A DNA stretch of 52,136 nucleotides from a virus. The stretch is taken from positions 1 to 52,136 of IMG/VR virus record IMGVR_UViG_3300033412_000022, one strand, 5' to 3'. The notes beneath the pieces are model-generated. The model worked only from the letters and a program-made list of their open reading frames with translations, was not told the DNA's origin and did no database searches. Both the position numbers and the translations under genes were made by a program. Positions 1 to 52,136 of this stretch are shown here, in pieces; positions within the stretch are counted from its first letter, which is position 1; every line of letters begins with the position of its first letter.

Positions 1-45
1 GAGATAGTTGTAGGGGGGCATTGTCTACCCCCCCCCCGATTTTTT
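1..45. repeat. Terminal direct repeat, copy 1 (identical to 52092..52136)
   Basis: gagatagttgtaggggggcattgtctaccccccccccgatttttt is both the first and the last 45 nt. It contains a C10 run (28..37) and the parB-like ATG (21..19, minus strand). Confidence 0.95.
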
Positions 46-3472: not shown

Positions 3473-3573
3473 TGCTGACTGTCTCCTGAAAGTGTTAGCA
3501 ACCCGCCCGCACCGGCTACCGGCAAAGCCTCGGAAAGAGATGGCGCTGAGTACGCGAGCGGGTTGCTGATCCA

Positions 3574-3602
3574 ATATTAACTCATAGTTAATATCGTGTC
3601 AA
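3574..3602 (-). promoter_or_regulatory. Early-left sigma70-like promoter (TTGACA-17-TAATAT) with a perfect 9+3+9 palindromic operator O1
   Basis: On the minus strand the -35 is at 3602..3597 and the -10 at 3579..3574. The palindrome ATATTAACTCATAGTTAATAT (3574..3594) fills the spacer and the -10. Confidence 0.7.
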
Positions 3603-3614
3603 GTAGAAAATTAA

Positions 3615-3848
3615 CTATGACTGAACACTTTCGACTTTCCCTGCTTGCCGCCGGGTTTCCTTTGCAGCTTCGGAGACAGTCTGAAGGTCGCACCCTATAA
3701 TGTCGGCGTAGGCCTGAAGAGTGGTGAGGCGGGTGGAGCCGTCCCTCTCAATCTTGTACAAAGCGGTGTACGAGATATTGAGACGCCTGGAAAGATCGAC
3801 AGGCGTAACCCCTTTGCTTTTGCGTAACTCTTTCAGCGTCATATTCAT
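3615..3848 (-). CDS. Cro-like XRE-family HTH regulator
   Basis: MNMTLKELRKSKGVTPVDLSRRLNISYTALYKIERDG is a classic HTH_3 pattern. The gene is divergent from the CI-like gene. Confidence 0.85.
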   Translation of the reverse strand: MNMTLKELRKSKGVTPVDLSRRLNISYTALYKIERDGSTRLTTLQAYADIIGCDLQTVSEAAKETRRQAGKVESVQS

Positions 3849-3854
3849 AAGTTT

Positions 3855-3883
3855 ATATTAACCCATAATGAATATTGATGCAA
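3855..3883 (-). promoter_or_regulatory. Promoter of the cro-like gene (TTGCAT-17-TAATAT) with operator O2; leaderless arrangement
   Basis: -10 at 3860..3855, with the ATG only 6 nt downstream and no SD. O2 ATATTAACCCATAATGAATAT (3855..3875) matches O1 at 14 of 16 arm positions. Confidence 0.55.
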
Positions 3884-3918
3884 TGCGGGTTTCACCACAT
3901 GTTCATTCAAAATTACAA

Positions 3919-3947
3919 TTGCAGTAGTAACTAAAAGTTAATACAAT
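3919..3947 (+). promoter_or_regulatory. Promoter of the CI-like gene (TTGCAG-17-TACAAT) with operator O3
   Basis: O3 GTAGTAACTAAAAGTTAATAC (3924..3944) has the same TAAC-N5-GTTA core as O1 and sits in the spacer. Confidence 0.5.
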
Positions 3948-3982
3948 GTGTATAACGTTGCGGAAAGGAAGTACGCCCGGAT

Positions 3983-4429
3983 ATGTTGACGCTTTCTCGG
4001 CCCGCTCCAGTTGTAGGTTTAGAGAGGATTCCGCCCTTTATGGCGACCTCGTTCGGTCAATGGCTTAAAGAGCAGTTGGAGCGACGCGGACTGTCTCAAA
4101 GGCAGTTAGCACTCGCTGTAAATAAAACACCTTCACATATATCGCAGGTCATAAATGACCGCGGCGGATTGTCACCTGACCTGGTGAACGAAATCGCCGA
4201 TGTATTGGAAGTGCCACGCAAAGCAGCTTTGCAAGCGTGGATAGATTCGCAGTCTGGCGAAGGCGAAGAACTCACCCGCGAGCCAGTTGACCCGGATCTG
4301 GCGAGAATCAACGAGTTGTGGCGCGACGGCAAGATTTCCGAGCGAGACAAGAAAGTGATGCTCTTGCTTGCCGCCCAGAACGAGGAAGACGAGCGGCAGG
4401 ACTCCATCGGTAAGACTCCAAGCAATTAA
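3983..4429 (+). CDS. CI/ImmR-like XRE-family HTH repressor
   Basis: FGQWLKEQLERRGLSQRQLALAVNKTPSHISQVINDRGG. The start could be ATG 3983 or ATG 4040. Confidence 0.8.
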   Translation: MLTLSRPAPVVGLERIPPFMATSFGQWLKEQLERRGLSQRQLALAVNKTPSHISQVINDRGGLSPDLVNEIADVLEVPRKAALQAWIDSQSGEGEELTREPVDPDLARINELWRDGKISERDKKVMLLLAAQNEEDERQDSIGKTPSN

Positions 4430-4466
4430 CTTTCACAGATAGATGTAGAGAAAAGCCGCACGCTAG

Positions 4467-4961
4467 ATGTGGCAAACATGTGTTTTAACGGACAAGTCAG
4501 GAGACGCGGAAGGAATGGACCTGCCGCTACAGCGCAAAGCGAGAAAACCCCGCAGGAAAGAGAGACCGGGCAAAAACCCGCTAAAGGTGAGGGACCATGA
4601 ACTTCAAGCGCAGTTTATCGCCAGAAGGCTTCGGGTTTTGGCTGAGGGCGAGATAGGCGACCCGGAAACCTGGCAGAGCCTCGCGCGTCGCCTCCGGGTG
4701 AGATACGTCCGGGCCGACTGCATGACAGGCATTTACTCCCGACCCGGATGGGATTCGTACCGAGCATCTATCGCAATTAGCATTTACGCCTCAGACGATC
4801 AAGAGTGCCGTTATGCTGTCCACGAATTAGCACACCATCTGACATATGAGTCTCAGGGGTACTTCTTCGCGGAGGAAACGATTGTGCATCGCTATGACGA
4901 TGAAAACGGAGGTATCGGGCATCGCATTGCCTGCCGGGTGGAAAGGTTGGTGTTGGGTTGA
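4467..4961 (+). CDS. ImmA/IrrE-like zinc metallopeptidase (candidate anti-repressor protease)
   Basis: HEXXH motif in RYAVHELAHHLTYE. The gene lies immediately downstream of the XRE repressor, as in ImmR/ImmA modules. Confidence 0.6.
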   Translation: MWQTCVLTDKSGDAEGMDLPLQRKARKPRRKERPGKNPLKVRDHELQAQFIARRLRVLAEGEIGDPETWQSLARRLRVRYVRADCMTGIYSRPGWDSYRASIAISIYASDDQECRYAVHELAHHLTYESQGYFFAEETIVHRYDDENGGIGHRIACRVERLVLG

Positions 4962-5536
4962 AGCCGATGCAAGTGATAGGTGTGGCAATCGTCCTTTTGT
5001 TGGTCGCCTTGCTGTTTTTCAGCATTGGTAGACAATCTCAGATTTCCACACCCTCCGTCCAGGTGGCGGGGCGCCCACCGGTACCAGCTTCTGCTACGCC
5101 TCCGCCATTTCAACCCAATAGAAACACACAGGCTGTCCGAGCATATTTAACAGCCGCTCTGGTACTACTCGATGGCGTTGAAGACAGCATCAATGCGTTG
5201 GAGAGAACGACAGCAGAAGGTCGGCAGAATATCGCGATGTTTCAAAATCCCGAATACAAAAATTCATGGGCAGTCAAAGCAGCTTTGTCTTGCACAGTTA
5301 TTAAAAATTTCGGAAAAACGACATTTGAAATCACAGATGTCCCCCCGGAATGCTATGACATGCACCGCCTCTTGGTTTCCATCGGTCGCAAATCGGTGGT
5401 GTTCGCGGAAATATTTGTCGGCGACGTTTTATTTATTCTAACCCAAGGCTCGCAACAGGTAGCTAATGATGCAATGGAATTGCGGGCTGAAATCCAACGG
5501 TTTCGCCAATACGCAGGACGGCAGGTGACACAATGA
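4958..5536 (+). CDS. Membrane-anchored hypothetical protein
   Basis: N-terminal TM segment VIGVAIVLLLVALLFFSI followed by a Pro-rich linker. Overlaps the upstream stop. Confidence 0.55.
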   Translation: MKPMQVIGVAIVLLLVALLFFSIGRQSQISTPSVQVAGRPPVPASATPPPFQPNRNTQAVRAYLTAALVLLDGVEDSINALERTTAEGRQNIAMFQNPEYKNSWAVKAALSCTVIKNFGKTTFEITDVPPECYDMHRLLVSIGRKSVVFAEIFVGDVLFILTQGSQQVANDAMELRAEIQRFRQYAGRQVTQ

Positions 5537-5679
5537 ACCTCGTCTATACCATCTTTCTAACCGCCGGGTGGACCTGGTTCGCCATGGCGCTGACCTGTCC
5601 CCGCTCCATCGCTCGCCGCCAGTTGGGGGATCTGGGAGGATATGCCATGCGGTTGTTGGGACTCAACAAACAACCCTAA
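5533..5679 (+). CDS. Small membrane protein, 48 aa (not in ORF track)
   Basis: ATGA overlap with the previous gene. MNLVYTIFLTAGWTWFAMALTCPRSIARRQLGDLGGYAMRLLGLNKQP. Confidence 0.4.
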   Translation: MNLVYTIFLTAGWTWFAMALTCPRSIARRQLGDLGGYAMRLLGLNKQP

Positions 5680-5685
5680 AACCCA

Positions 5686-5711
5686 GGGGAGGCTTTTTAT
5701 ATCTCCTCCCC
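5686..5711 (+). promoter_or_regulatory. G-rich stem-loop GGGGAGG-N12-CCTCCCC (member of an intergenic hairpin family)
   Basis: 7-bp perfect stem, 7 nt after the TAA at 5677..5679. Confidence 0.5.
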
Positions 5712-5783
5712 ACGTCTAAAAACCGCCGTTTTCGTAGCGGGTCTAAGGGTCTCCACCTCTCAAAACGAGAGGGAAACGCCGCT

Positions 5784-5830
5784 CCTTGCTTTCAAGGAGG
5801 AGATCACGGGTTCGAATCCCGTCCGGGCTA
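5784..5830 (+). other. tRNA-like 3' fragment (T-arm plus acceptor 3' strand), candidate attP core
   Basis: ACGGG-TTCGAAT-CCCGT T-arm (5806..5822) followed by CCGGGCT-A. A possible anticodon arm has loop CTTTCAA (UUC). No matching 5' acceptor strand or D-arm lies upstream. The integrase starts 71 nt downstream. Confidence 0.45.
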
Positions 5831-5900
5831 TAACTTGATTGATAACTGCAATTATTAATCAATGTTGACAAGGAAAAAGACCCTCCCCGCCGCGTGAACG

Positions 5901-7046
5901 GTGCCTGAAATCCTATTTGGAGGCACTGTTTTGAATCTTACATCTCCTCCTCAGGGTCAAACCGTGGCCCGGAGAATCGTCCAAAAACGGCGTGTCGCCG
6001 CGCCAACTTCCAAGCCCGCCATTATCGCCGAACGCCGCGACTTCCTGCTGGCGGCGCGCGTCCCCTTCCTCGTCCGGTCGTGGGCGGTGGATATGGAATC
6101 CGCGAACCGCTCCGATCGCTACATTGGCAATGTCACCGAGATCCTGGAAAAGTGGATTTGGTGGGCAGGGCATAATCAGTGCGAGCGTTTCGACACCAAC
6201 AGTCTGCGCGGGTTCCTGCGCTACGTCCAGACCGGTCACCAGTTGCCGGAGGGTCGCTGGGGCGAACCGGGGCAGACGCGGCAGGATCATCTGGGGAAAC
6301 CTGGCTATCCCATCAACCAGCGATACTCTCCCGTGGCGGACAGCACCGTTCTGGACTACTACCGCCGTATCCGCGGGTGGTGTTCCTGGCTCGTCAAACA
6401 GGACTATCTGGAATACTCACCGATTGATCGCGTAACCCAACCCCTGGCCCGCTCTAAGCCTCAGTTCAATGTCTTCTCGGAGGATGAGGTACGCAGGATG
6501 GAGGCGGCGGCCCGGAAGAGTAAAACCGCCGCGCGGGACACCGCGCTGGTGCTGTTCCTGGTGGACACCGGCCTGCGGGCGGAGGAAGTAACCACCCTCA
6601 CCTGGAGCCAGGTCAATATGGACAAGGACGAAGCGACATTCCAGGGGAAGGGCGACAAGACGCGCACTGTCTGGTGGAGTCGGGAGGTGGGGAGAGCGCT
6701 GTATGCCTGGAGGTCTGAGTGGGAACTGCCGGAGGGAACCAACGGCCCGGTCTTCCCCTCCCTCGCGAATCGGGCGCACGGGGGCACCATGGACCGCGGC
6801 GGCCTGAGGCATCTCCTGGCCCGTCTGGGGCGTGTTGCAAAGGTGGAGAGGTGCAACCCTCACACGTTCCGCCACACCTGTGCAACGATGCGCGCGCTGT
6901 CTGGCATGGAGCCGTTCGTCTTGAAGGAGTTCCTGGGACACGAGAGCATTGAGACGACCATGAAGTACATCAAGTTCGTTAGGGCCGATCTGTCGGCGAG
7001 CAGCAGGAAGCACAGCCCGGTGGCGATGCTAAGGCGGAAACGGTAG
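5901..7046 (+). CDS. int: Tyrosine recombinase / phage integrase
   Basis: NPHTFRHTCAT (HxxR) and LGHESIETTMKYI (catalytic Tyr) near the C-terminus. The start is uncertain (GTG 5901, or TTG 5931 after GGAGG). Confidence 0.9.
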   Translation: MPEILFGGTVLNLTSPPQGQTVARRIVQKRRVAAPTSKPAIIAERRDFLLAARVPFLVRSWAVDMESANRSDRYIGNVTEILEKWIWWAGHNQCERFDTNSLRGFLRYVQTGHQLPEGRWGEPGQTRQDHLGKPGYPINQRYSPVADSTVLDYYRRIRGWCSWLVKQDYLEYSPIDRVTQPLARSKPQFNVFSEDEVRRMEAAARKSKTAARDTALVLFLVDTGLRAEEVTTLTWSQVNMDKDEATFQGKGDKTRTVWWSREVGRALYAWRSEWELPEGTNGPVFPSLANRAHGGTMDRGGLRHLLARLGRVAKVERCNPHTFRHTCATMRALSGMEPFVLKEFLGHESIETTMKYIKFVRADLSASSRKHSPVAMLRRKR

Positions 7047-7057
7047 TTGAGAGGATG

Positions 7058-7083
7058 GGGATTATTCGGCGCCGAATAATCCC
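7058..7083. repeat. Palindrome copy 1: GGGATTATTCGGCGCCGAATAATCCC (26 bp, perfect)
   Basis: Lies between the convergent int and 388-aa genes. It shares the 16-bp core TATTCGGCGCCGAATA with 41214..41235 and 52010..52025; the copy at 19331..19350 has one core mismatch. Confidence 0.9.
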
Positions 7084-7169
7084 GCCTAACACAGGCGGCA
7101 TAGCCCGGTGGGATCATTATACAATAGGGAAAAGTGACTGGTGCCCGGAACAAAATTTGGAAACGGGAA

Positions 7170-8336
7170 TCAAATATTCCAATCACTGAACTCTGCCACA
7201 ACCTTTCTCCAGGGTCTCACCCAGTTCAGCCCGTTATTTTCGTCTTCATCCATACGGATTTTTCTGGTAATCAGCCGCGTCCACTTTTCTTCGGCGTGCA
7301 AAAGCAACGTTTGAACATCCAGCCCCTCGTTTACAATTCGATTCTCGATTTGTGCAAACCAGTACAAATATTGGCACCAGCCTAGCCGAACCCAGCTGGG
7401 GCGTTGTTTCCCAATTGGTGGCGGGTTCGAAATTAGACTTAGAATAACCGGCGAATACGGATTATCGCCTAAATCGCCAAGCAAACGTTGCCTGGAAAGA
7501 CGCAACACATCCGGTTCACGCAGAAAGGCCAAAAGTGATTCTTCGGTCCAATACGGTTTCATCCCTTTTGATTTTCCGCCACCGGTGTACCGTTTTGGAT
7601 CATAACGCCTTGACGTCCAATGCTTACCTGTTGCACAAACGCTGGCCCCTGCGTACTTCCATAGCACAATGTCGGATGACGTGCGGCTAACGATCACACG
7701 GAATCCGGCGCCCTCAAGGAGACTGATTAACTTCATCACGCCCAGTAGGTCATCGCTCTGATTCAGTTCGCGTCGTGAAGGCGTATTACCCACGAGAACT
7801 AGATATATTTCTTTTGAATCCGTGCGCGACAGTATAGACGCAATTTGCTCCGATCTACCGCCCTGCGCAATATCAGGTAAACTAATGACCGCTGTTTGAA
7901 TCACCTGAACATGGGAGCCTGATAGCTGGTTCGTTAAGAACCCACAGATGAAGACCGATAAGTCGTAAAAACTATCGTGGTAATGTTTTGGCACATCTAT
8001 AGGCGAACAGACTTTGTTGATGCCAAGGTTCAGGCATAAGTCAGCCAATCGCTGGCTTAATTGGTACCACCAAGTCTCGCTCCCTCGGTCACCACTTTCA
8101 AGTGCTGGTGGGAAATACGGCCATTGAGGTAAGTAACCGCTACGATTACCAGGACAATACAGTTCAGGGTCAAAAATCAAGTCAAAATCAGGTTTGCCAT
8201 ATAACTGACTGATGTCTTTCTCGATTTCTTCCCGCTCGCCATTAAAAGGGCTGAGGATTGCTCCTTTGAATTGGGCCAAGTGAGGTTCTTGTATGAGGCT
8301 CAAACTCTGGTGGCCCATCTGATAGTACACAGCCAT
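7170..8336 (-). CDS. Hypothetical 388-aa protein (third gene of the kinase island)
   Basis: Long ORF in a lower-GC region. I recognise no family motif. Confidence 0.7.
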   Translation of the reverse strand: MAVYYQMGHQSLSLIQEPHLAQFKGAILSPFNGEREEIEKDISQLYGKPDFDLIFDPELYCPGNRSGYLPQWPYFPPALESGDRGSETWWYQLSQRLADLCLNLGINKVCSPIDVPKHYHDSFYDLSVFICGFLTNQLSGSHVQVIQTAVISLPDIAQGGRSEQIASILSRTDSKEIYLVLVGNTPSRRELNQSDDLLGVMKLISLLEGAGFRVIVSRTSSDIVLWKYAGASVCATGKHWTSRRYDPKRYTGGGKSKGMKPYWTEESLLAFLREPDVLRLSRQRLLGDLGDNPYSPVILSLISNPPPIGKQRPSWVRLGWCQYLYWFAQIENRIVNEGLDVQTLLLHAEEKWTRLITRKIRMDEDENNGLNWVRPWRKVVAEFSDWNI

Positions 8337-8382
8337 TGTGCGACATCCTTTGACGGTAAAGTTACATCAACAATGAGAGGTT

Positions 8383-9219
8383 TCATTTCCAATCATTTAA
8401 CAGTTCATGTGGTCGCGTGTATCGCCGAACAGGCCACGAGGCAACCATTTTATAGAGAACCTTCAAATTTGAGGCGGAACAGGCGTTCGCAAAACGACGG
8501 GATACGACATGCTTCGATCCGACTTTTCTTACAACATCGTCTTGTGTATCATTCGGCTCGCTATAAGGGTGAAAACCGAATATACAAAACGAAAATAGAA
8601 CCCCCAACGCGAACTGGTCGGTTCTCCAGTCGATCATGCTTGTGTCATTGTTGAGTTGTTCTGGTGCTGAGTAGAACGCAGTACCTGGCCCCCTCGATTG
8701 CCCTGAAGCGGTCAGCGAGTACTGGGACAAATCGCGCACAAGACCAAAGTCTACAATAACTGGGGTGATGTTATCAGGACGGAACATTACATTTTCCGGT
8801 TTTAGATCCCGATGAACAATCTTCTTTTCAGCCATCTGAGCTATCGCCGGAATAAGTTGGTGACCAAGAGCTAGAAGTTCATCTCGCGTCATCAAGCTGC
8901 GGCGTAGTCGAGCTGTGAGTGTCCCACCCGATAAAAACTCCTCTATCAGATAGAGGTACGATTGGCCGCTATAGTCGAACACTCCAGACGAATGCAACCG
9001 AGCAAGGTTATCATGGGCGCAAAGCGCCATTGCTGCAATCTCCCGATCAGTTCTCTCTGACCTTGATTTCGTTGGATCAAAGATTTTCAAGGCGAAAGAC
9101 TCACCTTGAGCGTCCTTAATATGGAACGTTTCTTTGTATGCTCCTGCTGCTTTATAGCCGAGGAATTGAAACTGGAGACTACGACAAACCTCTGTTGCAA
9201 CCTGCTCGAATTGTGGCAT
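8383..9219 (-). CDS. Hanks-type (eukaryotic-like) Ser/Thr protein kinase, kinase domain only
   Basis: FALKIF (beta3 Lys), HRDLKPEN catalytic loop, DFG (DFGLVRD), and APE (YSAPEQ). Confidence 0.85.
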   Translation of the reverse strand: MPQFEQVATEVCRSLQFQFLGYKAAGAYKETFHIKDAQGESFALKIFDPTKSRSERTDREIAAMALCAHDNLARLHSSGVFDYSGQSYLYLIEEFLSGGTLTARLRRSLMTRDELLALGHQLIPAIAQMAEKKIVHRDLKPENVMFRPDNITPVIVDFGLVRDLSQYSLTASGQSRGPGTAFYSAPEQLNNDTSMIDWRTDQFALGVLFSFCIFGFHPYSEPNDTQDDVVRKVGSKHVVSRRFANACSASNLKVLYKMVASWPVRRYTRPHELLNDWK

Positions 9220-9643
9220 TCTGAGTGTCTCCTGACGAGAAAAACTTTGCTTCGTCCGACAACCAAGGCTGAAGTGGTTCTACCAGCGGCGCTTCATAAA
9301 GAACAACCACCTTATCGTCTTTAATGAAACAGATGCCCACTTCCCGGACTTCGAATTCCCACACGAAGCGAAATGCGGCGACGGCAATATTTTCAGGCAC
9401 GACTATGTATGACCGATGGGCAAAACAGGTGTTGCGGTAAGCCTGTTGGAGCGCCTTGCGCCATTTGGTCAGTTTCGCTTCAAAGGCAATAACGGTATCA
9501 TCATCGGCCACGACGACCACATCGGTACGACCGTTGGTATGGTCGAACTGCTCGGAAATACTAACAGTACTCCACTCTGCAGGAAACTGGTTCAAACATC
9601 CTATAAAATCATCTACTAGCGCTTGTTCGTTATTATACGCCAT
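9179..9643 (-). CDS. PD-(D/E)xK nuclease-like protein
   Basis: GRTDVVVVADDDTVIAFEAKL gives the D...E-x-K pattern, followed by QQAYRN. GGGGGGA SD before ATG 9643. Overlaps the kinase start by 41 nt. Confidence 0.5.
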   Translation of the reverse strand: MAYNNEQALVDDFIGCLNQFPAEWSTVSISEQFDHTNGRTDVVVVADDDTVIAFEAKLTKWRKALQQAYRNTCFAHRSYIVVPENIAVAAFRFVWEFEVREVGICFIKDDKVVVLYEAPLVEPLQPWLSDEAKFFSSGDTQNATIRAGCNRGLS

Positions 9644-9922
9644 ATTCGTCCCCCCGCGCTCAACATTCGACTACGTTGTACAACCGAATCGGTCTCGTGT
9701 CTAGGAAATCTATATATTCGTTGGGTTGGCTAAAATCTGGGGATGCAATAATCTTGCCCACAGTGGAGCGCTGTATATATCGACCAGTCCGACCACGCCT
9801 AGTAGACTGGTAAGGGTGCTGGTAGACGCCCAACACGCCCTTTTCCGCTTTTCCAGTATCCTACTAGTGGCTAACCAATTACCAATCTTCCTCCATATAG
9901 ATGGTGAGAAAGGACCACTAAT

Positions 9923-10273
9923 TTGGAATCTCAGTTTTATCCGGCTGGCAAAGCAACTCCAGAATCTGATGTACCACAATTCGTAAAGCAATGGGTCAAA
10001 GACCACCCAAACATCTACAAACTCTCTATCGATCAACAGTGGCGCCGCTTTGAACAGGGAGAAAACAAGAACTTAACCCCTCATGCCATCATGGAGGCTG
10101 GTTACATTCAGGAAGGCAGTTCCTGGGTGGCATTAGGGGAAATGCCTGGTACATTCAAGGGTAGCGGAGAAATCGTTTCCCTCGAGCGCATAGATGATGG
10201 CGCCACCATCTATTATGTGGGTCAAGCTCCGCAACGCGGTTTCATTCTCTGGTGCGAGATAAACCAGAGTTAG
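9923..10273 (+). CDS. Hypothetical protein (start uncertain)
   Basis: 116-aa ORF with ordinary composition in a lower-GC region. The track start is TTG and no clear SD is present. Confidence 0.3.
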   Translation: MESQFYPAGKATPESDVPQFVKQWVKDHPNIYKLSIDQQWRRFEQGENKNLTPHAIMEAGYIQEGSSWVALGEMPGTFKGSGEIVSLERIDDGATIYYVGQAPQRGFILWCEINQS

Positions 10274-10321
10274 TTAAACCATAGGGGGTTGGAGTTTAAT
10301 CCGCACGGAATAATTCCCACC

Positions 10322-10546
10322 CTAACACCGGCGGTAATTACAGGCGGGCCGCTCGCTCAAACTCTCCGCGCATTCCATTACCATCAAATAACCCCGGCCC
10401 TCAATGTAATAGAGATTGGACAGCAGACCGCCCCCGCACTGGGGGCACACCCCGCGAATCCATTTCGGGTCGGATAGTTTCACCGCCTGAAGTTGCTTGG
10501 TCTCCGCCTCTTCCAGCGACCGCGCGTAAATCGGCCCCTTCGCCAT
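10322..10546 (-). CDS. Small zinc-ribbon-like hypothetical protein
   Basis: 74 aa with a CPQCGG motif plus C-terminal Cys residues. Confidence 0.45.
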   Translation of the reverse strand: MAKGPIYARSLEEAETKQLQAVKLSDPKWIRGVCPQCGGGLLSNLYYIEGRGYLMVMECAESLSERPACNYRRC

Positions 10547-10614
10547 CGTGATAACTCCTGCAAACCCGTTTGCTACAGTTTACAGTTTTGCAATCCGCCA
10601 AAGCAAACTTTTGT

Positions 10615-10643
10615 TTTCTTTTGTGTCGGTTTCGCGGTAGAAT
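10615..10643 (+). promoter_or_regulatory. Weak candidate promoter (TTTCTT-17-TAGAAT) for the methyltransferase operon
   Basis: -10 TAGAAT at 10638..10643. GGGAG SD and ATG 10665 follow. Confidence 0.3.
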
Positions 10644-10664
10644 TTGGGCAGGGAGAAAATCACG

Positions 10665-10898
10665 ATGTGCCTCATGCAACCACGGGAGGAAGGCAGGCGG
10701 ATGTCGAGAGTGCCAGACGATGGCGTCTACACGATAGCCCATCTGCGGAACGCGCTGGAGCGTGACGAGTGGGACATCCCGCAATACTGCCCGGAGGATG
10801 GCTATGGCCCGGAGGGGAACAACTTCGCCGTCTCCCCGATGGTGGACCGGGAAGAGCGGGAGTGGCAGGGAGTGCCTGTCATAGGAGCCAAAAGGTGA
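10665..10898 (+). CDS. Hypothetical protein
   Basis: ATG 10665 follows GGGAGAAAATCACG; 77 aa. Confidence 0.45.
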   Translation: MCLMQPREEGRRMSRVPDDGVYTIAHLRNALERDEWDIPQYCPEDGYGPEGNNFAVSPMVDREEREWQGVPVIGAKR

Positions 10899-11164
10899 GC
10901 CGTCTGGTTAATCTGCCGGTCGAGGTTGAGGTCAATGCGGCGGGGGAACCCGTAGCCGTTCATGTACCTGGAAACCCGGAGCCTATCCCCGTGGACGACC
11001 TGGGCGAGCATTACGTTATGTGGGTAGGCGTCCTGCGGGGCGAACCACAGCGGGAAGTCTTCCAGGCGAAGTTCGGCGGCGCAATCGGCGAGCTGCACTG
11101 CCTGCGCAAGCATGGCGATAGGTCGAAACCCGGCGATTGGGTTATTCACCGCGGGATGGACTGA
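10895..11164 (+). CDS. Hypothetical protein
   Basis: GTG 10895 overlaps the previous stop (GTGA); GGAG lies 6 nt upstream; 89 aa. Confidence 0.45.
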   Translation: MSRLVNLPVEVEVNAAGEPVAVHVPGNPEPIPVDDLGEHYVMWVGVLRGEPQREVFQAKFGGAIGELHCLRKHGDRSKPGDWVIHRGMD

Positions 11165-11262
11165 CCCGTAATAGTACAATAGTTCTCCTTGACTGTTGCA
11201 CACCCTTCAATTATCCTTGCATTCTCCGATAATTCGGGAGGGCCGAGGAGGAACCTTGTGGC

Positions 11263-12897
11263 GTGCGAACCAATGTGCTGTATTACGGCGATAACCTGCA
11301 TGTTCTGCGGGAGCGTATCCCCAATGACTCGGTAGACCTGATTTATCTGGACCCGCCGTTTTCGTCGGCCCGCGATTACTTTGTCATCTTTAAGGATAGG
11401 ACGGGTAAGGCAAGCGAGGCGCAGTCCGAGGCGTTCGGCGACACATGGGTGTGGGGTGAAGAGGCGGAGGCCGCGTACCGGGAACTCTGTGTCGGTTCGA
11501 CCCATCACCGGGTTAATCCAGACCTTGCCGTTACCATACAAGCGTTCCGAACCTTCCTGCGCGAGTCGCCGATGATGGCCTATCTGGTCAGCATGGCGAT
11601 ACGACTTCACGAGATGAAACGGGTTCTCAAACCGAACGGGAGCCTTTACCTGCACTGCGACTCGACCGCCAGTCACTACCTGAAGGTGCTGCTCGACACC
11701 ATCTTTACCCCCCAATGGTTTCGGAACGAAATCATATGGAAGCGCACTTCGGCGCACAACGATACCGCGCAGGGAACCAAAAGATACGGACGCAACCACG
11801 ACGTTATACTCTTCTACGCCGGGCCAGGAGCGACGTGGAATCCGCAATATATGCCCTATGACGAGGAGTATGTGCGCTCTTTCTACAAGCACAAGGATCC
11901 GGACGGGCGGCTTTACCGCCTTTCTGACATGACCGGACCGGGTGGGGCATCGAAGGGCAACCCGTATTATGAGGTCATGGGAGTCTCCCGATACTGGCGC
12001 TTCAGCCGCGAGAGGATGGAGCAACTTATCAGCGCAGGGCGGGTAGTGCAGACCAAGCCGGGGAGTGTGCCGCAACAGAAACGCTATCTGGACGAGATGC
12101 CCGGCGTTGCCGTTCAGGCTGTTTGGGATGACATCAAGCCCATCGGGGCGCAGGCCGCCGAACGGTTAGGTTACCCGACCCAGAAACCGCTCGCCCTGCT
12201 CGAGCGGATTATCCGCTGCAGCAGTAACCCTGGCGATGTCGTGATGGATACGTACTGCGGTTGCGGGACGACGGTCATGGCGGCGCATGGTCTTGCGCGA
12301 CAGTGGGTAGGAATAGACATAACTGCCGTCGCTACCTGCATTATCAAAGCGCGGTTGGAACAAACGTTTGGGGACCTTGCGGGGAAGGTGGAAGTCATCG
12401 GACTGCCGATGGATTTGGAAGGCGCGCGCACTCTCTTTGAGGCTGACTCACACCAGTTCCAGATATGGGCTTGTACGCTCATCGGCGCTTACCCGAACCA
12501 GAAGAAGGGCGCGGACAAAGGCATTGATGGATGGATGCCGATAGCGGATATGAACGATCACCCTCACAGGTGCGTTGTCCAAGTCAAAGGCGGGAAACCA
12601 ACCCTCAGTCAAATTCGCGACTTCTGCCATGTAGTGACGCGCGAGAAGGCCGCCATCGGGTTCTTCGTGACGCTCGGCGATATAACGCCCGCCATGAAGA
12701 CGGAGGCCGTCGCGGAAGGATTCTGGGACGCGGGACGCGGGCAGACCTATCCGAAGGTGCAGCTACTCTCCGTCGCGGAACTGATGACCGGACTGGCGAG
12801 GCCAAAGATGCCCACCCAGGAGAAGCGCTCCATCCTGGGCTATATGGCGAACCGACAGGAAAACAAAGGGCTTCAGCCAACGCTGGAGTTGGACTGA
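11263..12897 (+). CDS. Beta-class N6-adenine/N4-cytosine DNA methyltransferase fused to a C-terminal Mrr-like restriction-endonuclease domain
   Basis: Motif IV DLIYLDPPF, followed later by motif I VVMDTYCGCGTT (beta-class order). The C-terminus DKGIDGW...VVQVKGGKPTLSQIRDF...AAIGFFVTLGDITPA fits the Mrr_cat pattern. GAGGAGGAA SD before GTG 11263. Confidence 0.85.
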   Translation: MRTNVLYYGDNLHVLRERIPNDSVDLIYLDPPFSSARDYFVIFKDRTGKASEAQSEAFGDTWVWGEEAEAAYRELCVGSTHHRVNPDLAVTIQAFRTFLRESPMMAYLVSMAIRLHEMKRVLKPNGSLYLHCDSTASHYLKVLLDTIFTPQWFRNEIIWKRTSAHNDTAQGTKRYGRNHDVILFYAGPGATWNPQYMPYDEEYVRSFYKHKDPDGRLYRLSDMTGPGGASKGNPYYEVMGVSRYWRFSRERMEQLISAGRVVQTKPGSVPQQKRYLDEMPGVAVQAVWDDIKPIGAQAAERLGYPTQKPLALLERIIRCSSNPGDVVMDTYCGCGTTVMAAHGLARQWVGIDITAVATCIIKARLEQTFGDLAGKVEVIGLPMDLEGARTLFEADSHQFQIWACTLIGAYPNQKKGADKGIDGWMPIADMNDHPHRCVVQVKGGKPTLSQIRDFCHVVTREKAAIGFFVTLGDITPAMKTEAVAEGFWDAGRGQTYPKVQLLSVAELMTGLARPKMPTQEKRSILGYMANRQENKGLQPTLELD

Positions 12898-19371: not shown

Positions 19372-22300
19372 TCACGAATAAGTGACGCCGTCAATGCTCC
19401 GCACCGTCACAAGGCTCCCCCCTGTGTCCTTATAGAGCAGATAGATGTACCCATCTCTGGGAAACGCGGTCAGGGCATCGTCGTCCGCGCCAGATACTAC
19501 TACTGTAGTTTCCGCTTCTATTTCCACCCCCTGCGGGTCCAATATGCGCGTGAGGATAGCCCCTGCCCCATCGTTACAAAAATGGTGTTCCACCCCTGTC
19601 GGTGTGACAGTCATTGTGGGTTTTTCTCCTGCCGCAAATATGGTGGTGGGCACGCTCCATGTACTCCCCTCATCTAATGTCTCGCGGCGAACAATCGCGC
19701 CGGAATCCTCATAAACGACGATAATGCGCCCATCATTTACCCCTTTTCCGTAGCGGACGCAGGGATGCCCGCCGCTGATACCGGTGGACCTATCCTGCCA
19801 TCCGAACGGCAGGGTGGTGAGGAACCCGATAATGATGGCGTCCGTTCCGAGGATGTAGGACCGCACCGCGCGCATCATGCGGTTTGTGTCGGAGGAAGGC
19901 CACAGTATCTCGCCATGCACCCGCCACAGGAGCCACCACCGGAACCCGTCCCCGATTTTGTTGACAAGCCCGGTGGAGGGATAAGCGTCATCCATCCATG
20001 CCCGGACCCAGTTCGCCAGGAACCCGAGCGCGCGGGCATAGGGCGAACCGGTCTTATAGTACCCATCGCCGTCCGGTGTCCCTCTCCCTCTCTCGCCGTT
20101 GTCCGCGCCGCCGCTGGTAAGTTCCGTCAGGACGACTTCCTGCGTGCCTCCGAGCGCGCCCAGTACAGGCCCGAACGCCTGCCCGCGAACGACCATATCG
20201 AAATGAACCGGGGTATCCTCGGAATATGCCCCCGATCCGAAAATGTCTCCCGCGCCGGGATAGCCGTCAATGGCAACCGCAAGCGGATACGCGCGGAGGG
20301 TTGTCTCATTGCCTGCTCCCGCGACATCCTGGTCCAGATGGCTCCCGTCAAAACCCAACCCTTCCAGATAGGCATAGAACCCTGCCGTAGAGTTCTGGTG
20401 GTAGGCGGGGTCCAGATAGGTTGTCGTCCCGGGGCTGACAGTATCGTAAACATCCGCCGGTTGGTCAAACGGCGCGACGGCAAGGTCCGACATTACCCAG
20501 GAGGAGGGGTTATCTCCAACATCCACCGGCGCGGCGGGCGGGATAAACGAGAGTTCCGACGCGTCGTTTTTGAGCGTTACTGCCCGCGTGAGTAGGGTGT
20601 CGGTAATAAATTCCAGATCCGCGCCCGTGTAGATTTTCGAGTGATTCATCCGCTCGCCGCGAATCCACTCCACTTCGTAGGTACTGGAAACGGCAAGGTT
20701 CTTAACCGCCACCTGATTCAGCGTATCGGTTGGCAGAATGCCGGTGTAATCCAGCAGGGGGTAATGCTGGTCGTACCTATCGAACATCCGCTCCACCCAG
20801 ACGCCGTCCGCGCCAGTCGTGGAAGCGTACTCCTCTCCCGTTATCGGGGAGAAGGCGTCATGCCCCAGGACGAGGGTAAAGGGCAGATTGTCCGCGCCAA
20901 CAGAGCGAATGCGGATACCCACATGGCGCATCTCCACGCGGTCGGTGAGGAGTTTCAGGACGGCCGCGCGGTCGGTGTCCGCGCCTCCCGTCCCGGATGT
21001 CACGATTTGCAGCTTGCCCGAAACGATGCTGAGAGAGGTTATCGCGGCGGTCGCGCCCGGATACCATCCTTTCGCGGAATAGGGCAGGGTTCGGATGGCG
21101 TGCCAGGGGTCTTTGGCGTAGTATTTGTACTGCTCCTGGTAGACGCTGAACTGGTCCCACCCCGGCCCGCGAACGCAGAACCTGCCCACCTGCGGCTTGA
21201 CGGCGGAGAAGCCGGTTGTAGTAAAACGGCACCCGAACTGCGAGGGAGGCAGGACGGACGAACTGCCGGAGTCGTGGCTGGTATTGGCCGCGCCCGAGCC
21301 GTTCGAGTTCCCGCCCGCGCTTGCCGCTCCCTCCCGATAGGAGAAGGCGAACTCCCCCGCCGCGCCGCGCGAGATCGGGAACGTTCCGCTGTCCGTATAG
21401 AGAGAGGAACTGATGCCCGCCGTCCACTCTATCTGACTGGAATCGGGGATAGAGGACCCGAAGGCAATAGCGTTCGCCCTGCCGACGTATTTCCATTTCA
21501 CCGGGAAGAACGATGCCGATTGACTCCTCTTGACCGTCGTTGTGGAAGTGGTTGCGGACACCGAGGTTGCCGTTATGCTCCCGTTGGCGTTGCTCGCTGT
21601 CATGCCGGTAGGGGTCTGCGTGTACCCTCCCCCGTCCCAGGTCGCGTCCAGAGTCGCGGTAGAGGATTGCCCGTCGCTCACCTGGACATTGAGCCGGATA
21701 AAGGGCCAGTAGAGGTCATCCAGAACGCCTCCGGAATTGTACGCGACAATCGGTGTGGTCTCGTCATTCGCCCCGCATATCCAGCCGAACACGCCGCCCG
21801 GTTTCGTCGCCTCGAAATACTGCACCCGGTTAATGGGAAAGGTACCGCTGGTCACCGGTTCCAGTTCGTTATTGTCATAGCCGGAGGCGTAGCGCCGCCA
21901 CTCGATTTCCGCCATGTCCGCCACAAACTCAAAGTCGCCGCCATGCGACCCGTCATAGGTAGCCGTCACGGTGAGAACGGAGCCGGGGTTAAACAGTCCA
22001 ACATTATCGTTAGAGAGAAATCCGCTCGGGGTGCCGGGAGTGCCGATAACGGAAGCGTAATATCCTGTTATCCCATCCCATCCGGCATCGAAGGATTCCA
22101 GAACATCGCCCGTCGCCGCGTCCTTTATCTGGATAATACAGGCGGTGGTATTGCTCGCGTCATAGGTGTAGATGGGACCGAATACCTTGCGGTAGGAGTT
22201 CGGCGTGGAGATAAGGTGCTGGGTGTAGGGCTTGTCAAGGCCCGCGACGCAGGAGGAGCGCTTTTCCAACCGATGCGGCAATGCCCATCCGAGGAACGCG

Positions 22301-22452
22301 CCGGGAGAGGAGGGACTGCCCGCAAACACCTTCCCGACCTTTGCGTGGAGTCCCGTCTGCGTCAGGTCCACCACCATGCGGTAATCGTAGGAATACGACC
22401 CGTGCAGGCGAATCCGGCGCTCTCGCGTCTGTACAAAGCGATAGCCGGACAT
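19372..22452 (-). CDS. Large distal tail / receptor-binding protein with a C-terminal BNR (Asp-box) region
   Basis: 1026 aa; last tail gene. Asp-box-like TLDEGSTW at 19657..19680, and a second motif, RSIDGVTY, at the C-terminus. Confidence 0.6.
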   Translation of the reverse strand: MSGYRFVQTRERRIRLHGSYSYDYRMVVDLTQTGLHAKVGKVFAGSPSSPGAFLGWALPHRLEKRSSCVAGLDKPYTQHLISTPNSYRKVFGPIYTYDASNTTACIIQIKDAATGDVLESFDAGWDGITGYYASVIGTPGTPSGFLSNDNVGLFNPGSVLTVTATYDGSHGGDFEFVADMAEIEWRRYASGYDNNELEPVTSGTFPINRVQYFEATKPGGVFGWICGANDETTPIVAYNSGGVLDDLYWPFIRLNVQVSDGQSSTATLDATWDGGGYTQTPTGMTASNANGSITATSVSATTSTTTVKRSQSASFFPVKWKYVGRANAIAFGSSIPDSSQIEWTAGISSSLYTDSGTFPISRGAAGEFAFSYREGAASAGGNSNGSGAANTSHDSGSSSVLPPSQFGCRFTTTGFSAVKPQVGRFCVRGPGWDQFSVYQEQYKYYAKDPWHAIRTLPYSAKGWYPGATAAITSLSIVSGKLQIVTSGTGGADTDRAAVLKLLTDRVEMRHVGIRIRSVGADNLPFTLVLGHDAFSPITGEEYASTTGADGVWVERMFDRYDQHYPLLDYTGILPTDTLNQVAVKNLAVSSTYEVEWIRGERMNHSKIYTGADLEFITDTLLTRAVTLKNDASELSFIPPAAPVDVGDNPSSWVMSDLAVAPFDQPADVYDTVSPGTTTYLDPAYHQNSTAGFYAYLEGLGFDGSHLDQDVAGAGNETTLRAYPLAVAIDGYPGAGDIFGSGAYSEDTPVHFDMVVRGQAFGPVLGALGGTQEVVLTELTSGGADNGERGRGTPDGDGYYKTGSPYARALGFLANWVRAWMDDAYPSTGLVNKIGDGFRWWLLWRVHGEILWPSSDTNRMMRAVRSYILGTDAIIIGFLTTLPFGWQDRSTGISGGHPCVRYGKGVNDGRIIVVYEDSGAIVRRETLDEGSTWSVPTTIFAAGEKPTMTVTPTGVEHHFCNDGAGAILTRILDPQGVEIEAETTVVVSGADDDALTAFPRDGYIYLLYKDTGGSLVTVRSIDGVTYS

Positions 22453-24651
22453 TTAGGGTAAATCTCCAATGCGCTTCGCGGTGTAGGTCGTAGGGGAACT
22501 GCGCGCATCCGGCGCGGACTTGTTGATGCTGGATTGCAGCGATTGGATGCGATAATCCCCGCCCTCATGAGAGGCTATCGCGCCGGGGTAGACGCGGATA
22601 ACATCGCCCCGGTACAGTATCAGGCCGTCACCATCCCGAAGAAGTTGGCGCGTCTTAATCTGCGCGACGCGGAGTTCGCTGGTCAGGCGCTCCTCCAACT
22701 GGTCGGCGGCATGGCTGACCGAAGCGGCGGTGACAAGGCGCGGCTCCACGACTCCGACGGGCGTTATCTCCCCTACCCATCCGGCGGGCCGCAGGGAGGG
22801 GAGCAGGGTAGGGTCTTCCAGAATGCTGTATATCCGTCTGTCTCTCAGAACGGTCTTTGTCGTTGGGTCATAGCCTACGACGCTAAGGCGGGTCGTTTCC
22901 GCGGGGTAACAGTCCTCCCGAAAACCGAGAATGGCGGTTTTATCCCCGTCTTCCTCCCGGTCCATATAGAGTGTGGCTTTCGGAGTCGCGGAGAGCGTGC
23001 TTTCGCTCCTTGCCCGGAACATAGGACCGGTGAGCGTCGGATAGAAGCCAATGTACCAGGTCGGCGCGAACGTTCGCGCGATGCGCAGAATCCAGTCCGC
23101 GACCGTATCCAGGGCTTCCGGACGATACGCCCACTCGCCCTTGCTCGCGGCGGGACTCAGCGGCAGGTTAAAGGCCGATGTCTCGATGTCCCATTCCGCC
23201 ATGGGAATCCCCGCATCCTGCAGCAGTTCCGCGAAAACTTCATGGAGAGGGAAGCCGTCAAACGCGGGGCGCGACTCCTCGTAGCGCGCCGTCTCCAGTT
23301 GGCTCCATAGGTCGCGGACTTCCCAATTAAGGGTTTCCGCCGATGCCGATTTCCCCGCGCCGTATTCCGGCTTGCCCGTGTTGCCGGTGAAGAAGGTGAC
23401 GCCATCCAGTTCCGCCTGCATTGGGCGGTTCCCGGTCCTTGTCGGATAAGCAATCGGCATAGAGGCCGGGTCTTTCGCGCTCACTGTCAGACGAACCCCG
23501 CCTGGGTCTTCGGGCACGTTGAGGGAAAGCCGCTGCACATTGCCTGCTATATCCGCCATCTCTACGGCATTGGTGTCCGCTGTTTCGGGAGGCAGGACAT
23601 AATCCACATCGTAGACAAAGGGGGTTTCGGTTCCGCTGCCGGTGAGGTCGCAGCGGATGGTAATCGTGTCTATTACCCCATCCGGGGTATAGGCGGTCGT
23701 TCCGTCAATCTCGCGGAGGGACGGGGCGCTCATGGCGGAACTGCCGGAAACCGGAATGTCCCAGAAGTCCGCGACAACGAAGGTCGCGCCGGTAGGGGGA
23801 GGCAGGCGCAGAAAGAGCGGCAGAGAGGCTATCCATCCGGCTGTCGGGTAGGTAAGCGGGGCGCACTGGACCGAGGCTTTCCCCTGCGCGACCTGCCACC
23901 AGAAATGGGAGAGCGGCGCGGTAATGTCGTTCACCGTATCCGGGTCAAGGTCCGCGAATACATGACTGAATCCGTCGCCGGTCGCGGAGAGGACGAGCAG
24001 TTCGCGCTTTCGGCAGGGGATGAGATAGAGATTGACTACCCTGCCCACCACGTCGCCATTCGGGGTACCCTCCGCGCCCGCTGGCCCGATCTGGCTATAG
24101 CGTTTGACTTCCTGCGCCGCTCCGGAGATAGACCCCGTGCCAACCATCGCCGCGCCCTTGTAGACCTGCACGCGCCCGCCGCCGAGGATGCGCAGGCTAA
24201 CCGTATCCGGGTCGCCGGGAGTCCCCCATCCGCATTCTATTGCGTTTTTGCCCAGCCCCGAACCCTCCGGCACGTAGAAGGAGAGGAAGAACCCGCGATT
24301 GGCGGCGTAGGTCGCGGAGGTGAATACCGCATAGTTCACCCCGCGCGATTCCAGATAAATATCCCCGTTGCCGCGCCGGTTGTTTTCCGCCCACTCGGAC
24401 GCGGGAAGCGGGGTAGTGAGGTCCGACTTGACATAACTTGCCCTGCTGAGGCGCGCATAGGAGCCGCTATAGGTCGTTTCCCAGTCGTCGCGCAGTTGGT
24501 AGGGGCGAAGCAGCAGCGTGCTGGTAATGGGGTCAACAATGCAGTTGCCGTCTCCCAGAGTCCCGTCCCAACTCCTGCCGTCCACGGAAGCGGCGAGCAA
24601 GCCGCGCGTGACTCTGGGCCTGCTGATGTCGAATTTTACTGCTACTGACAT
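22453..24651 (-). CDS. Distal tail / baseplate-hub protein (assigned by position)
   Basis: 732 aa; lies directly downstream of the tape measure gene and abuts the next tail gene. Confidence 0.5.
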   Translation of the reverse strand: MSVAVKFDISRPRVTRGLLAASVDGRSWDGTLGDGNCIVDPITSTLLLRPYQLRDDWETTYSGSYARLSRASYVKSDLTTPLPASEWAENNRRGNGDIYLESRGVNYAVFTSATYAANRGFFLSFYVPEGSGLGKNAIECGWGTPGDPDTVSLRILGGGRVQVYKGAAMVGTGSISGAAQEVKRYSQIGPAGAEGTPNGDVVGRVVNLYLIPCRKRELLVLSATGDGFSHVFADLDPDTVNDITAPLSHFWWQVAQGKASVQCAPLTYPTAGWIASLPLFLRLPPPTGATFVVADFWDIPVSGSSAMSAPSLREIDGTTAYTPDGVIDTITIRCDLTGSGTETPFVYDVDYVLPPETADTNAVEMADIAGNVQRLSLNVPEDPGGVRLTVSAKDPASMPIAYPTRTGNRPMQAELDGVTFFTGNTGKPEYGAGKSASAETLNWEVRDLWSQLETARYEESRPAFDGFPLHEVFAELLQDAGIPMAEWDIETSAFNLPLSPAASKGEWAYRPEALDTVADWILRIARTFAPTWYIGFYPTLTGPMFRARSESTLSATPKATLYMDREEDGDKTAILGFREDCYPAETTRLSVVGYDPTTKTVLRDRRIYSILEDPTLLPSLRPAGWVGEITPVGVVEPRLVTAASVSHAADQLEERLTSELRVAQIKTRQLLRDGDGLILYRGDVIRVYPGAIASHEGGDYRIQSLQSSINKSAPDARSSPTTYTAKRIGDLP

Positions 24652-32862: not shown

Positions 32863-32877
32863 TTTGGTCTCCAAAGC

Positions 32878-52112: not shown

Positions 52113-52136
52113 TGTCTACCCCCCCCCCGATTTTTT
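52092..52136. repeat. Terminal direct repeat, copy 2 (identical to 1..45)
   Basis: Exact 45-nt identity with the start of the window. Confidence 0.95.

Follow-up and report, generated by a model that had tools for sequence, protein, structure and literature searches.

A horizontally mobile three-gene cassette for a Hanks-type kinase, a predicted PD-(D/E)xK nuclease-like protein and an orphan TIM-barrel protein in a temperate phage genome

The virus record IMGVR_UViG_3300033412_000022 (positions 1 to 52,136; the window, that is, the whole 52,136-nucleotide (nt) stretch of DNA analyzed) contains, next to its integrase gene, an island of three minus-strand genes that encode a nuclease-like protein, a Ser/Thr protein kinase, and a protein outside every described family. 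What is this island, and what could its three products do together? Comparative genomics, profile searches, and structure prediction revealed that the trio is a real, ancient, and horizontally mobile three-gene cassette. Its genes, in the order of transcription, are:

9179-9643, minus strand: 154-amino-acid (aa) PD-(D/E)xK nuclease-like protein, first cassette gene, overlapping the kinase start by 41 nt
8383-9219, minus strand: 278-aa Hanks-type Ser/Thr kinase, second cassette gene (Pfam Pkinase, 8.2e-32)
7170-8336, minus strand: 388-aa orphan TIM-barrel protein, third cassette gene (fold from AlphaFold2)

The island had been singled out in an initial annotation made from the sequence letters. 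The three open reading frames (ORFs) that it had described were recovered, running from 9643 to 9179 (154 aa), from 9219 to 8383 (278 aa), and from 8336 to 7170 (388 aa), as was the 41-nt overlap of the first two. The motifs FALKIF, HRDLKPEN, DFG, and APE were found in the kinase translation, and the nuclease-type motif D...FEAKL in that of the 154-aa protein. Plus-strand ORFs overlapping the trio are short, and all minus-strand products have many homologues; the minus-strand ORFs are therefore regarded as real genes. The assignments of the initial annotation to the individual proteins also held. It had described a kinase lacking sensor and anchoring domains, and a bare, motif-intact Hanks-type domain was found; it had placed the 154-aa protein with the PD-(D/E)xK nucleases, with which the fold and the catalytic residues agree; and it had recognized no relative of the 388-aa protein, for which the searches of Pfam, NCBIfam, PADLOC, and PHROGs were indeed empty. 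A match of the 154-aa or the 388-aa protein to a housekeeping family, which it had named as speaking against a dedicated module, was found for neither.

To what extent the three genes belong together was assessed in a scan of one genome per species (185,579 species genomes), in which 117 relatives were found and 80 loci fetched; cassette counts were taken over 85 loci, designated here by L numbers. The kinase gene adjoins the TIM-barrel gene in 84 of the 85 loci. Co-conservation of the full trio, which the initial annotation had left to be checked, was found in 80 of 85, and of the five loci lacking the nuclease-like gene, four are fragmented or run into the end of a contig. In nearly all loci the three genes are co-directional, with the nuclease gene first, the kinase gene second, and the TIM-barrel gene last; L006 and L037/L038 are the exceptions. 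The distance from the kinase stop to the TIM-barrel start is 20 nt or less in 53 of 55 loci, and the two genes overlap or abut in 27. Pairwise distances within the three protein families are correlated over 72 loci (distance-matrix r = 0.75-0.81; Mantel p ≤ 0.001), a correlation that can partly stem from shared phylogeny. No recurrent fourth gene was found among 649 flanking ORFs after clustering.

The association extends beyond the main family. In TIM-barrel subfamilies of only about 18% identity, a gene for a kinase of 285-295 aa again comes before the TIM-barrel gene, and a homologue of the 154-aa protein is encoded on one side or the other (hhalign probabilities 97.8, 93.6, and 97.1%). The distant nuclease-like variants keep the ExK motif. 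Some of them are longer (224-237 aa), and weak Pfam matches suggest a winged-helix DNA-binding region in these. From the co-occurrence, the gene order, the start/stop coupling, and the co-divergence we infer that the three proteins would act jointly, probably as a complex.

Three loci or pairs of loci showed peculiarities of their own. In L092, an archaeal-looking contig with a ribosomal L34e gene nearby, a metallophosphoesterase gene (6332-7018; Metallophos_2, 5e-28) directly follows a distant TIM-barrel gene, and this calcineurin-like protein could be a phosphatase or phosphodiesterase partner. In the near-identical loci L001 and L002 (7316-8001), the kinase reading frame is broken into two pieces (87 + 127 aa) or shortened (135 aa), whereas the other two genes are intact; judged by these reading frames, this is a decayed copy of the cassette within a defence island. 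In L097, from a metagenome-assembled genome of Bifidobacterium, a gene for a 382-aa protein followed by two Pkinase genes (353 and 368 aa) lies at 8455-11764, about 1.6 kb downstream of the trio; the 382-aa protein has no Pfam match and falls outside the TIM-barrel family.

Carriers of the cassette are scattered widely. Relatives were most frequent in Acidobacteriota and were also found in Chloroflexota, Planctomycetota, Actinobacteria, Firmicutes, Proteobacteria, Bacteroidota, Verrucomicrobia, Nitrospirota, Thermotogae, and other phyla. Cultured carriers include Rubrobacter marinus, Burkholderia arboris, Undibacterium terreum, Chitiniphilus eburneus, Polaromonas naphthalenivorans CJ2, and Natribaculum breve. 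The full trio resides on plasmid pPNAP03 of P. naphthalenivorans, where the two annotated cassette genes are labelled 'serine/threonine-protein kinase' and 'hypothetical protein' in RefSeq, and on a plasmid of the haloarchaeon N. breve. A conjugative element bearing genes for a RepB primase, ParA, a relaxase, ArdC, and TraG surrounds the trio in L096, and another trio locus has resolvase, HicA, and HNH genes in its region. Integrase genes are the commonest immediate neighbours (6 of 149 flanking ORFs). The operon would thus spread among bacteria and archaea by way of phages, plasmids, conjugative elements, and genomic islands.

Phages themselves are rare carriers. With the TIM-barrel and nuclease-like proteins as tblastn queries, no match was obtained in 50,697 GenBank phages, and a pattern scan of IMG/VR, which was of limited sensitivity, gave no further copy of the trio. 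This rarity argues that the trio is captured cellular or mobile-element cargo and does not serve a phage life-cycle function. It also bears on the idea of a counter-defence or host-takeover module, in which the kinase would disarm host defences by phosphorylation in the manner of T7 gp0.7, with its partners assisting. Phage kinases can broadly disarm defences (PMC13645617), and the conjugative element of L096 has the anti-restriction gene ArdC besides the trio. However, sequenced phages are essentially devoid of the trio while chromosomes commonly carry it, a nuclease with intact motif is unexpected in an anti-defence kinase module, and the genes of the window occupy a cargo position on the lysogeny side and not a place among early lytic genes. 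We consider counter-defence quite improbable.

What do the three proteins look like individually? The kinase matches Pfam PF00069 over 249 of 263 profile positions with 111.1 bits (cut-off 31.7, E = 8.2e-32). Among 74 cassette kinases, conservation is at least 97% at each of K45 (beta3 Lys), E60 (alphaC Glu), HRD136-138, K140, N143, DFG157-159, T170 (activation-loop Thr), PE186-187, D201 (alphaF Asp), and R266 (alphaH-I Arg), and the kinase of the window carries all the conserved catalytic residues. It is apparently a bare catalytic domain, predicted to be active, with neither sensor nor anchor. The top PADLOC matches were mad6 (3.1e-39, 133 bits) and PD-T4-6 (1.9e-31, 107.7 bits), the profiles of the latter being aligned almost end to end; as these scores are close to the 111 bits of the generic Pkinase profile, which that of PD-T4-6 does not exceed, the likeness to either says little.

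For the 154-aa protein 78 homologues were found, and E6, D41, E55-x-K57, Q67, R70, and N71 are invariant in 38 of them; the protein of the window reads E55-A-K57. Beyond the ExK the family shows the motif AFExKLxxW[RK]xALxQAxRN. A Pfam search returned nothing above threshold, the best match being HSDR_N with a value of 0.0061, below the cut-off. The AlphaFold2 model (predicted local distance difference test, pLDDT, 89.9) had exclusively PD-(D/E)xK proteins as top Foldseek matches. The best was 3dnx (SPO1766; template modeling (TM) score 0.62, E = 6.2e-6), followed by SfsA, NucS/EndoMS, Cas4/ACE1, XisH, and Card1/Can2. The fold and the D...ExK arrangement are common to the 154-aa family and these minimal nucleases, whereas no membership at the sequence level was found, and an Fe-S cluster and a sensor domain are absent. 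According to the model, the 154-aa protein belongs to the PD-(D/E)xK fold with its catalytic residues intact, and nuclease activity is predicted. The nearest structural match, 3dnx, is a protein of unknown function, whose family we take to be annotated as repair-related.

The 388-aa protein was the most difficult to place. Neither Pfam, NCBIfam, PADLOC, nor PHROGs contains a match, Pfam was empty even for 30 diverse members of the family at E ≤ 10, and there is no significant sequence match to PDB chains. In a 90%-clustered database the family comprises 115 members, each either unnamed or labelled hypothetical, and the full hidden Markov model search with it reached 860 representative clusters at E ≤ 1e-3. 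A clear picture came from the AlphaFold2 model (pLDDT 92.4, predicted TM score 0.93), in which a (beta/alpha)8 barrel of residues ~1-250 is followed by a Trp-rich C-terminal helical bundle (295-387). DSSP assigned strands at 3-6, 23-28, 52-55, 108-110, 144-152, 176-182, 213-219, and 233-236, alternating with helices. Foldseek gave 140 matches in the PDB at E ≤ 0.001, and all 50 listed are TIM-barrel enzymes. Generic TIM barrels (GH84, GH3, tRNA-guanine transglycosylase (TGT), carboxyltransferases, and aldolase-type barrels) appeared among the matches listed from PDB and BFVD, with a best E of 4.6e-6 (GH84) and TM scores of at most 0.53.

Even its most distant subfamilies retain Q6, G8, S29-P30, D56-P-Q-x-Y60-x-P62, P112, G237, N241, R243, F245, and R249. 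Nearly all of these residues directly follow beta-strands 1, 2, 3, 4, and 8, and the C-terminal ends of the strands form the canonical catalytic face of TIM barrels. Since the conserved residues lie on this face, the family likely has an enzyme or ligand-binding pocket, as predicted from the model.

The best whole-length superpositions of the 388-aa model were obtained with TGT/DpdA (TGT: TM score 0.52-0.53) and with the GH84 O-GlcNAcase, which likewise combines a barrel with a helical bundle. Identity with either was rejected, the resemblance being confined to the fold. TGT enzymes are marked by the catalytic motif DSGG[FY]Q and a Zn-binding CxCxxC...H subdomain. The 388-aa family has FDPQLY at the matching strand end and no conserved Zn-binding Cys/His cluster, and hhalign of the family profile A4 against the TGT of Z. 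mobilis gave a probability of 0.55%; the TGT sequence used was confirmed against PDB entries at E = 2.4e-263. For GH84, neither an Asp-Asp pair nor a Pfam match is present in the family. Two weaker candidates were dismissed as well. A match of the C-terminal helices to the CutA nucleotidyltransferase (E = 1e-3 with profile A1) fell to 0.13 with the broader profile A4 and is ascribed to a chance EEPxNDG motif, and the armadillo-repeat matches of the single 388-aa sequence cover a 35-residue stretch, with none passing alone.

How might these parts work together? Judged by its motifs, the kinase would be the Ser/Thr regulator. Lacking a sensor domain of its own, it would need a partner for its input, and the role of input sensor or co-enzyme would fall most readily to the TIM-barrel protein, whose pocket may bind or convert a ligand that is small or phosphorylated, or else a nucleic-acid moiety. 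The PD-(D/E)xK protein could then be the effector that cuts nucleic acid, licensed or restrained by phosphorylation.

We then asked whether the trio corresponds to a known kinase-based system. MADS resembles it in being a multi-gene system with a Hanks-type kinase, MAD6, which was the top PADLOC match. The MADS operon has eight genes, among them one for a methyltransferase and one for a specificity subunit, and MAD6, MAD7, and MAD8 are mandatory (10.1101/2023.03.30.534895). Membership in MADS was rejected. The mad6 match covers only the kinase core (62-302 of 659), the NCBIfam model NF047741 scored 88.7 bits against a cut-off of 460, and the products of the nuclease-like gene, the TIM-barrel gene, and a further ORF starting at 9923 (see below) have no PADLOC match at E ≤ 0.1. 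Stk2 of Staphylococcus and PD-T4-6 of E. coli are likewise eukaryotic-like Ser/Thr kinases linked to phage defence. They act as single genes, whereas the genomic evidence gives the cassette kinase its two partner genes in the great majority of loci. TerY-P and BREX/PglW are also conflict systems that contain kinases, and the island differs from them by the absence of vWA, PP2C, PglX, and PglZ. PglW of BREX/Pgl was rejected with 47.9 bits against an NCBIfam cut-off of 990, and a PASTA kinase of the Stk1/PknB type with 86.4 bits against the PknB_PASTA cut-off of 450. A published description of a system composed of a kinase, a PD-(D/E)xK protein, and a TIM barrel was not found in the literature. 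To our knowledge, no system listed by DefenseFinder or PADLOC has the composition of the trio.

The KKP module (PfkA/PfkB/PfpC) calls for closer comparison, as it is a prophage-borne phosphorylation module like the trio of the window. It consists of a PP2C phosphatase and two kinases with CSD or FHA domains, whereas the trio has one bare kinase and no phosphatase. The trio was not assigned to KKP or TerY-P: no PP2C or vWA domain was found in the Pfam-scanned proteins between 3983 and 12897, and none recurs beside the cassette. KKP behaves as a toxin-antitoxin that acts both in the control of lysogeny and in defence against phages (PMC11341870), and this precedent would favour regarding the trio as an addiction module of mobile elements. 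A toxic kinase and/or nuclease would be held in check by another member, the carrier element would gain by post-segregational killing, and phage defence would be a by-product. The residence of the trio on plasmids, a conjugative element, and a prophage fits this picture, as does the tight coupling of its genes. Against it stand the many chromosomal copies among housekeeping genes with no visible mobile element, the lack of a phosphatase or an obvious antitoxin in the main family, and the size of the proteins, three enzymes of 150-390 aa being atypical for a toxin-antitoxin system. Addiction as the primary role therefore appears unlikely to us.

The neighbourhoods of the cassette point, to a limited degree, to biological conflict, which is clear from the gene content in L001, L003, and L089. 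L001 has genes for Shedu SduA_C, AbiJ/Abi_C, Fic, and HNH proteins nearby, and L003 one for a TIR_2 protein. In L089 (1538-4922) a TerY-P-like triad of vWA, PP2C, and a 645-aa kinase lies immediately upstream of a distant cassette. By raw counts, a minority of the 149 immediate neighbours match type I, IIG, or III restriction-modification, AbiEi, AbiD, or dCTPase. Because of its mobile carriage, its patchy distribution across domains, and the presence of some restriction-modification, Abi, Shedu, TIR, and TerY-P neighbours, we lean slightly toward the trio being a conflict module, serving anti-phage or anti-plasmid defence, which in a prophage would amount to superinfection exclusion, or abortive infection. 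It may at the same time act as an addiction or abortive-infection module.

Several observations weigh against such a role, in addition to the phylogenetic share in the co-divergence and the near-generic kinase scores given above. Most immediate neighbours are housekeeping or unassigned genes (FBPase, aconitase, CbiC, dehydrogenases), and the association with defence genes drawn from the raw counts is modest. The nuclease-like and TIM-barrel proteins match no PADLOC defence model at E ≤ 0.1, and the TIM-barrel fold yields no functional assignment. Finally, the copy of the window is unusual. Its TIM-barrel protein differs from the family at 16 of the 82 near-invariant positions, the best-conserved loop reads GKHWTSRRY where the family has GKFFNLRRF, with loss of the near-universal N241, and a spacer of 46 nt separates kinase and TIM-barrel genes in place of the usual tight coupling. 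Going by these exchanges, the TIM-barrel protein of the window may have an altered or reduced activity.

The prevalence of metabolic and housekeeping neighbours would suit an accessory cellular pathway that is merely mobile and unconnected with conflict, such as stress- or damage-related nucleic-acid processing, repair, or small-molecule salvage. TIM barrels are typically metabolic or repair enzymes, and glycosidases, TGT, aldolase-type enzymes, and carboxyltransferases were what Foldseek returned for the 388-aa protein; 3dnx, the nearest match of the nuclease-like protein, presumably belongs to a repair-related family. On the other hand, the extreme patchiness (117 relatives in the 185,579 species genomes) across the divide between bacteria and archaea and the residence on mobile elements are difficult to reconcile with a cellular pathway. 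No metabolic partner gene is conserved alongside, and the full protein-kinase features (APE, alphaF Asp, HRDxKxxN) are unlike those of a small-molecule kinase. We assign a low probability to an accessory pathway.

Within the conflict reading, a more specific scheme can be put forward tentatively, and we regard it as possible but doubtful. The trio would be an ancient bacterial-archaeal defence system with TIM-barrel immune chemistry under kinase control and the PD-(D/E)xK protein as executioner. The barrel could, for example, synthesize or degrade a signal derived from a nucleotide, or act on the nucleic acid of an invader by modifying or excising a base or sugar. If the cassette does serve defence, it represents a kinase-centred system containing a new enzymatic component, provides a compact object of three genes and 2.5 kb for the coupling of a Hanks-type kinase to a nuclease, and extends kinase-based immunity to archaea. 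If it does not, it is still a sharply defined and widely transferred operon. In either case, two of the three families, with hundreds of sequences, have no model in Pfam, NCBIfam, PADLOC, or PHROGs. Current pipelines therefore overlook the system or mislabel its kinase, which a standard PADLOC run might report as PD-T4-6.

Is the copy of the window still functional? Of all family members, its TIM-barrel protein diverges most, keeping 80.5% of the 82 near-invariant columns; the family mean is 97.3%, and no other member falls below 85.4%. Further exchanges are Q58E and GG256-257 to SK. This divergence, the altered loop, and the lost coupling to the kinase gene would be expected of a decaying passenger, once functional and now neutral in the phage. 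Yet all three ORFs are full-length, with no frameshifts or stops, and all invariant residues are retained in the TIM-barrel protein (27 columns), the kinase, and the nuclease-like protein. Real decay looks different, as the frameshifted kinases of L001 and L002 illustrate. Decay is thus a very improbable explanation, and a functional but fast-evolving copy is favoured over it on the strength of the retained residues and intact reading frames.

How the cassette came to lie beside the integrase gene can be read in part from the flanking DNA. The relevant features are:

5901-7046, plus strand: tyrosine integrase (Pfam Phage_integrase, 5.5e-30), adjoining the trio and convergent with it
7053-7098, no strand: left direct-repeat copy, holding a perfect 13+13-nt palindrome at 7058-7083
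9644-9922, no strand: divergent intergenic region upstream of the cassette (279 nt, defined by position)
9923-10273, plus strand: 116-aa ORF with TTG start, a candidate gene inside the insert and divergent from the trio (GC 0.484)
10287-10334, no strand: right direct-repeat copy, a degenerate version of the terminator hairpin region

The initial annotation had estimated the guanine-plus-cytosine (GC) content of the island by eye as mid-40s percent against about 60 percent. The dip is real but shallower, with 47.7% for the trio versus 59.4% for the remaining genome. Still, the trio region is the lowest-GC 2.5-kb segment of the genome, and 2.4% of such segments have 48.5% or less. The low-GC block is discrete (7099-10286, ~3.2 kb) and lies between imperfect direct repeats of ~47 nt, and the GC content returns to phage level right at or beyond the right copy. 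The two copies agree in 37 of 48 columns of a local alignment with a score of 18.5, whereas random pairs of 81-nt segments from the window peak at 17.0 (0 of 19,861 reach 18.5). GC content, insert limits, and repeats agree with the earlier proposal of an acquired cargo island beside the integrase gene, and the island would be a recently acquired cargo insert (moron) with a self-contained three-gene operon.

The palindrome at 7058-7083 lies between the stops of the integrase and 388-aa genes and folds as RNA with -26 kcal/mol (z = -2.7). This hairpin is likely a bidirectional terminator, predicted from its sequence, for the convergent integrase and TIM-barrel genes. We read the repeat as the integrase-side terminator region, which would have been duplicated when ~3.2 kb of foreign DNA entered between two convergent phage genes. 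Phage relatives lacking the insert, sought via the integrase in IMG/VR and JGI metagenomes, were not found. The promoter of the cassette is presumed to lie within 9644-9922; a search for it gave no sigma-70-type consensus site. The product of the ORF at 9923-10273 has no Pfam, PADLOC, NCBIfam, or PHROG match, and it was rejected as a conserved partner of the trio, having no homologue in the 85 related loci or the GenBank phages.

Further repeated sequences were observed at the edges of the insert. At the right edge, the palindrome ATAGATGATGGCGCCACCATCTAT (10190-10213) lies within the ORF at 9923-10273, and the palindrome CCGGCGGTAATTACAGGCGG (10328-10347) overlaps the right repeat copy. At the left edge, past the hairpin, 20 nt from the integrase 3' end (7004-7023) are repeated at 7092-7111 with 85% identity, which could be related to attP or to the insertion event.

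The genome around the island is that of a tailed phage, with matches for tape measure, major head, portal, primase/polymerase, and ParB proteins. A 45-nt exact direct repeat is present at both ends of the window (1-45 and 52092-52136), so that the phage genome of ~52.1 kb is probably complete and either circularly closed or terminally redundant. A tRNA scan of the window was negative, as was a search for Rfam families across 5000-11500. The phage carrying the island is temperate. Upstream of the integrase gene, an XRE-type helix-turn-helix gene (3983-4429) is followed by a weak M78/IrrE-like match (4467-4961, plus strand), and from their sequences the two (3983-4961) are assigned to an ImmR/ImmA-like lysogeny switch pair. 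The structural region has three very large minus-strand ORFs of 1026, 732, and 993 aa (19372-22452, 22453-24651, and 29893-32874), for which no PHROG match at E ≤ 0.001 was found.

Some 1 kb beyond the right edge of the insert, a plus-strand gene (11263-12897) encodes a 544-aa protein in which an N6/N4 DNA methyltransferase is fused to a C-terminal restriction-endonuclease-like domain (Mrr_cat/NA-iREase1). It was dismissed as a fourth cassette gene because it does not recur beside the trio elsewhere. A second low-GC patch lies at 3500-4250, with a GC content of 0.45-0.47.

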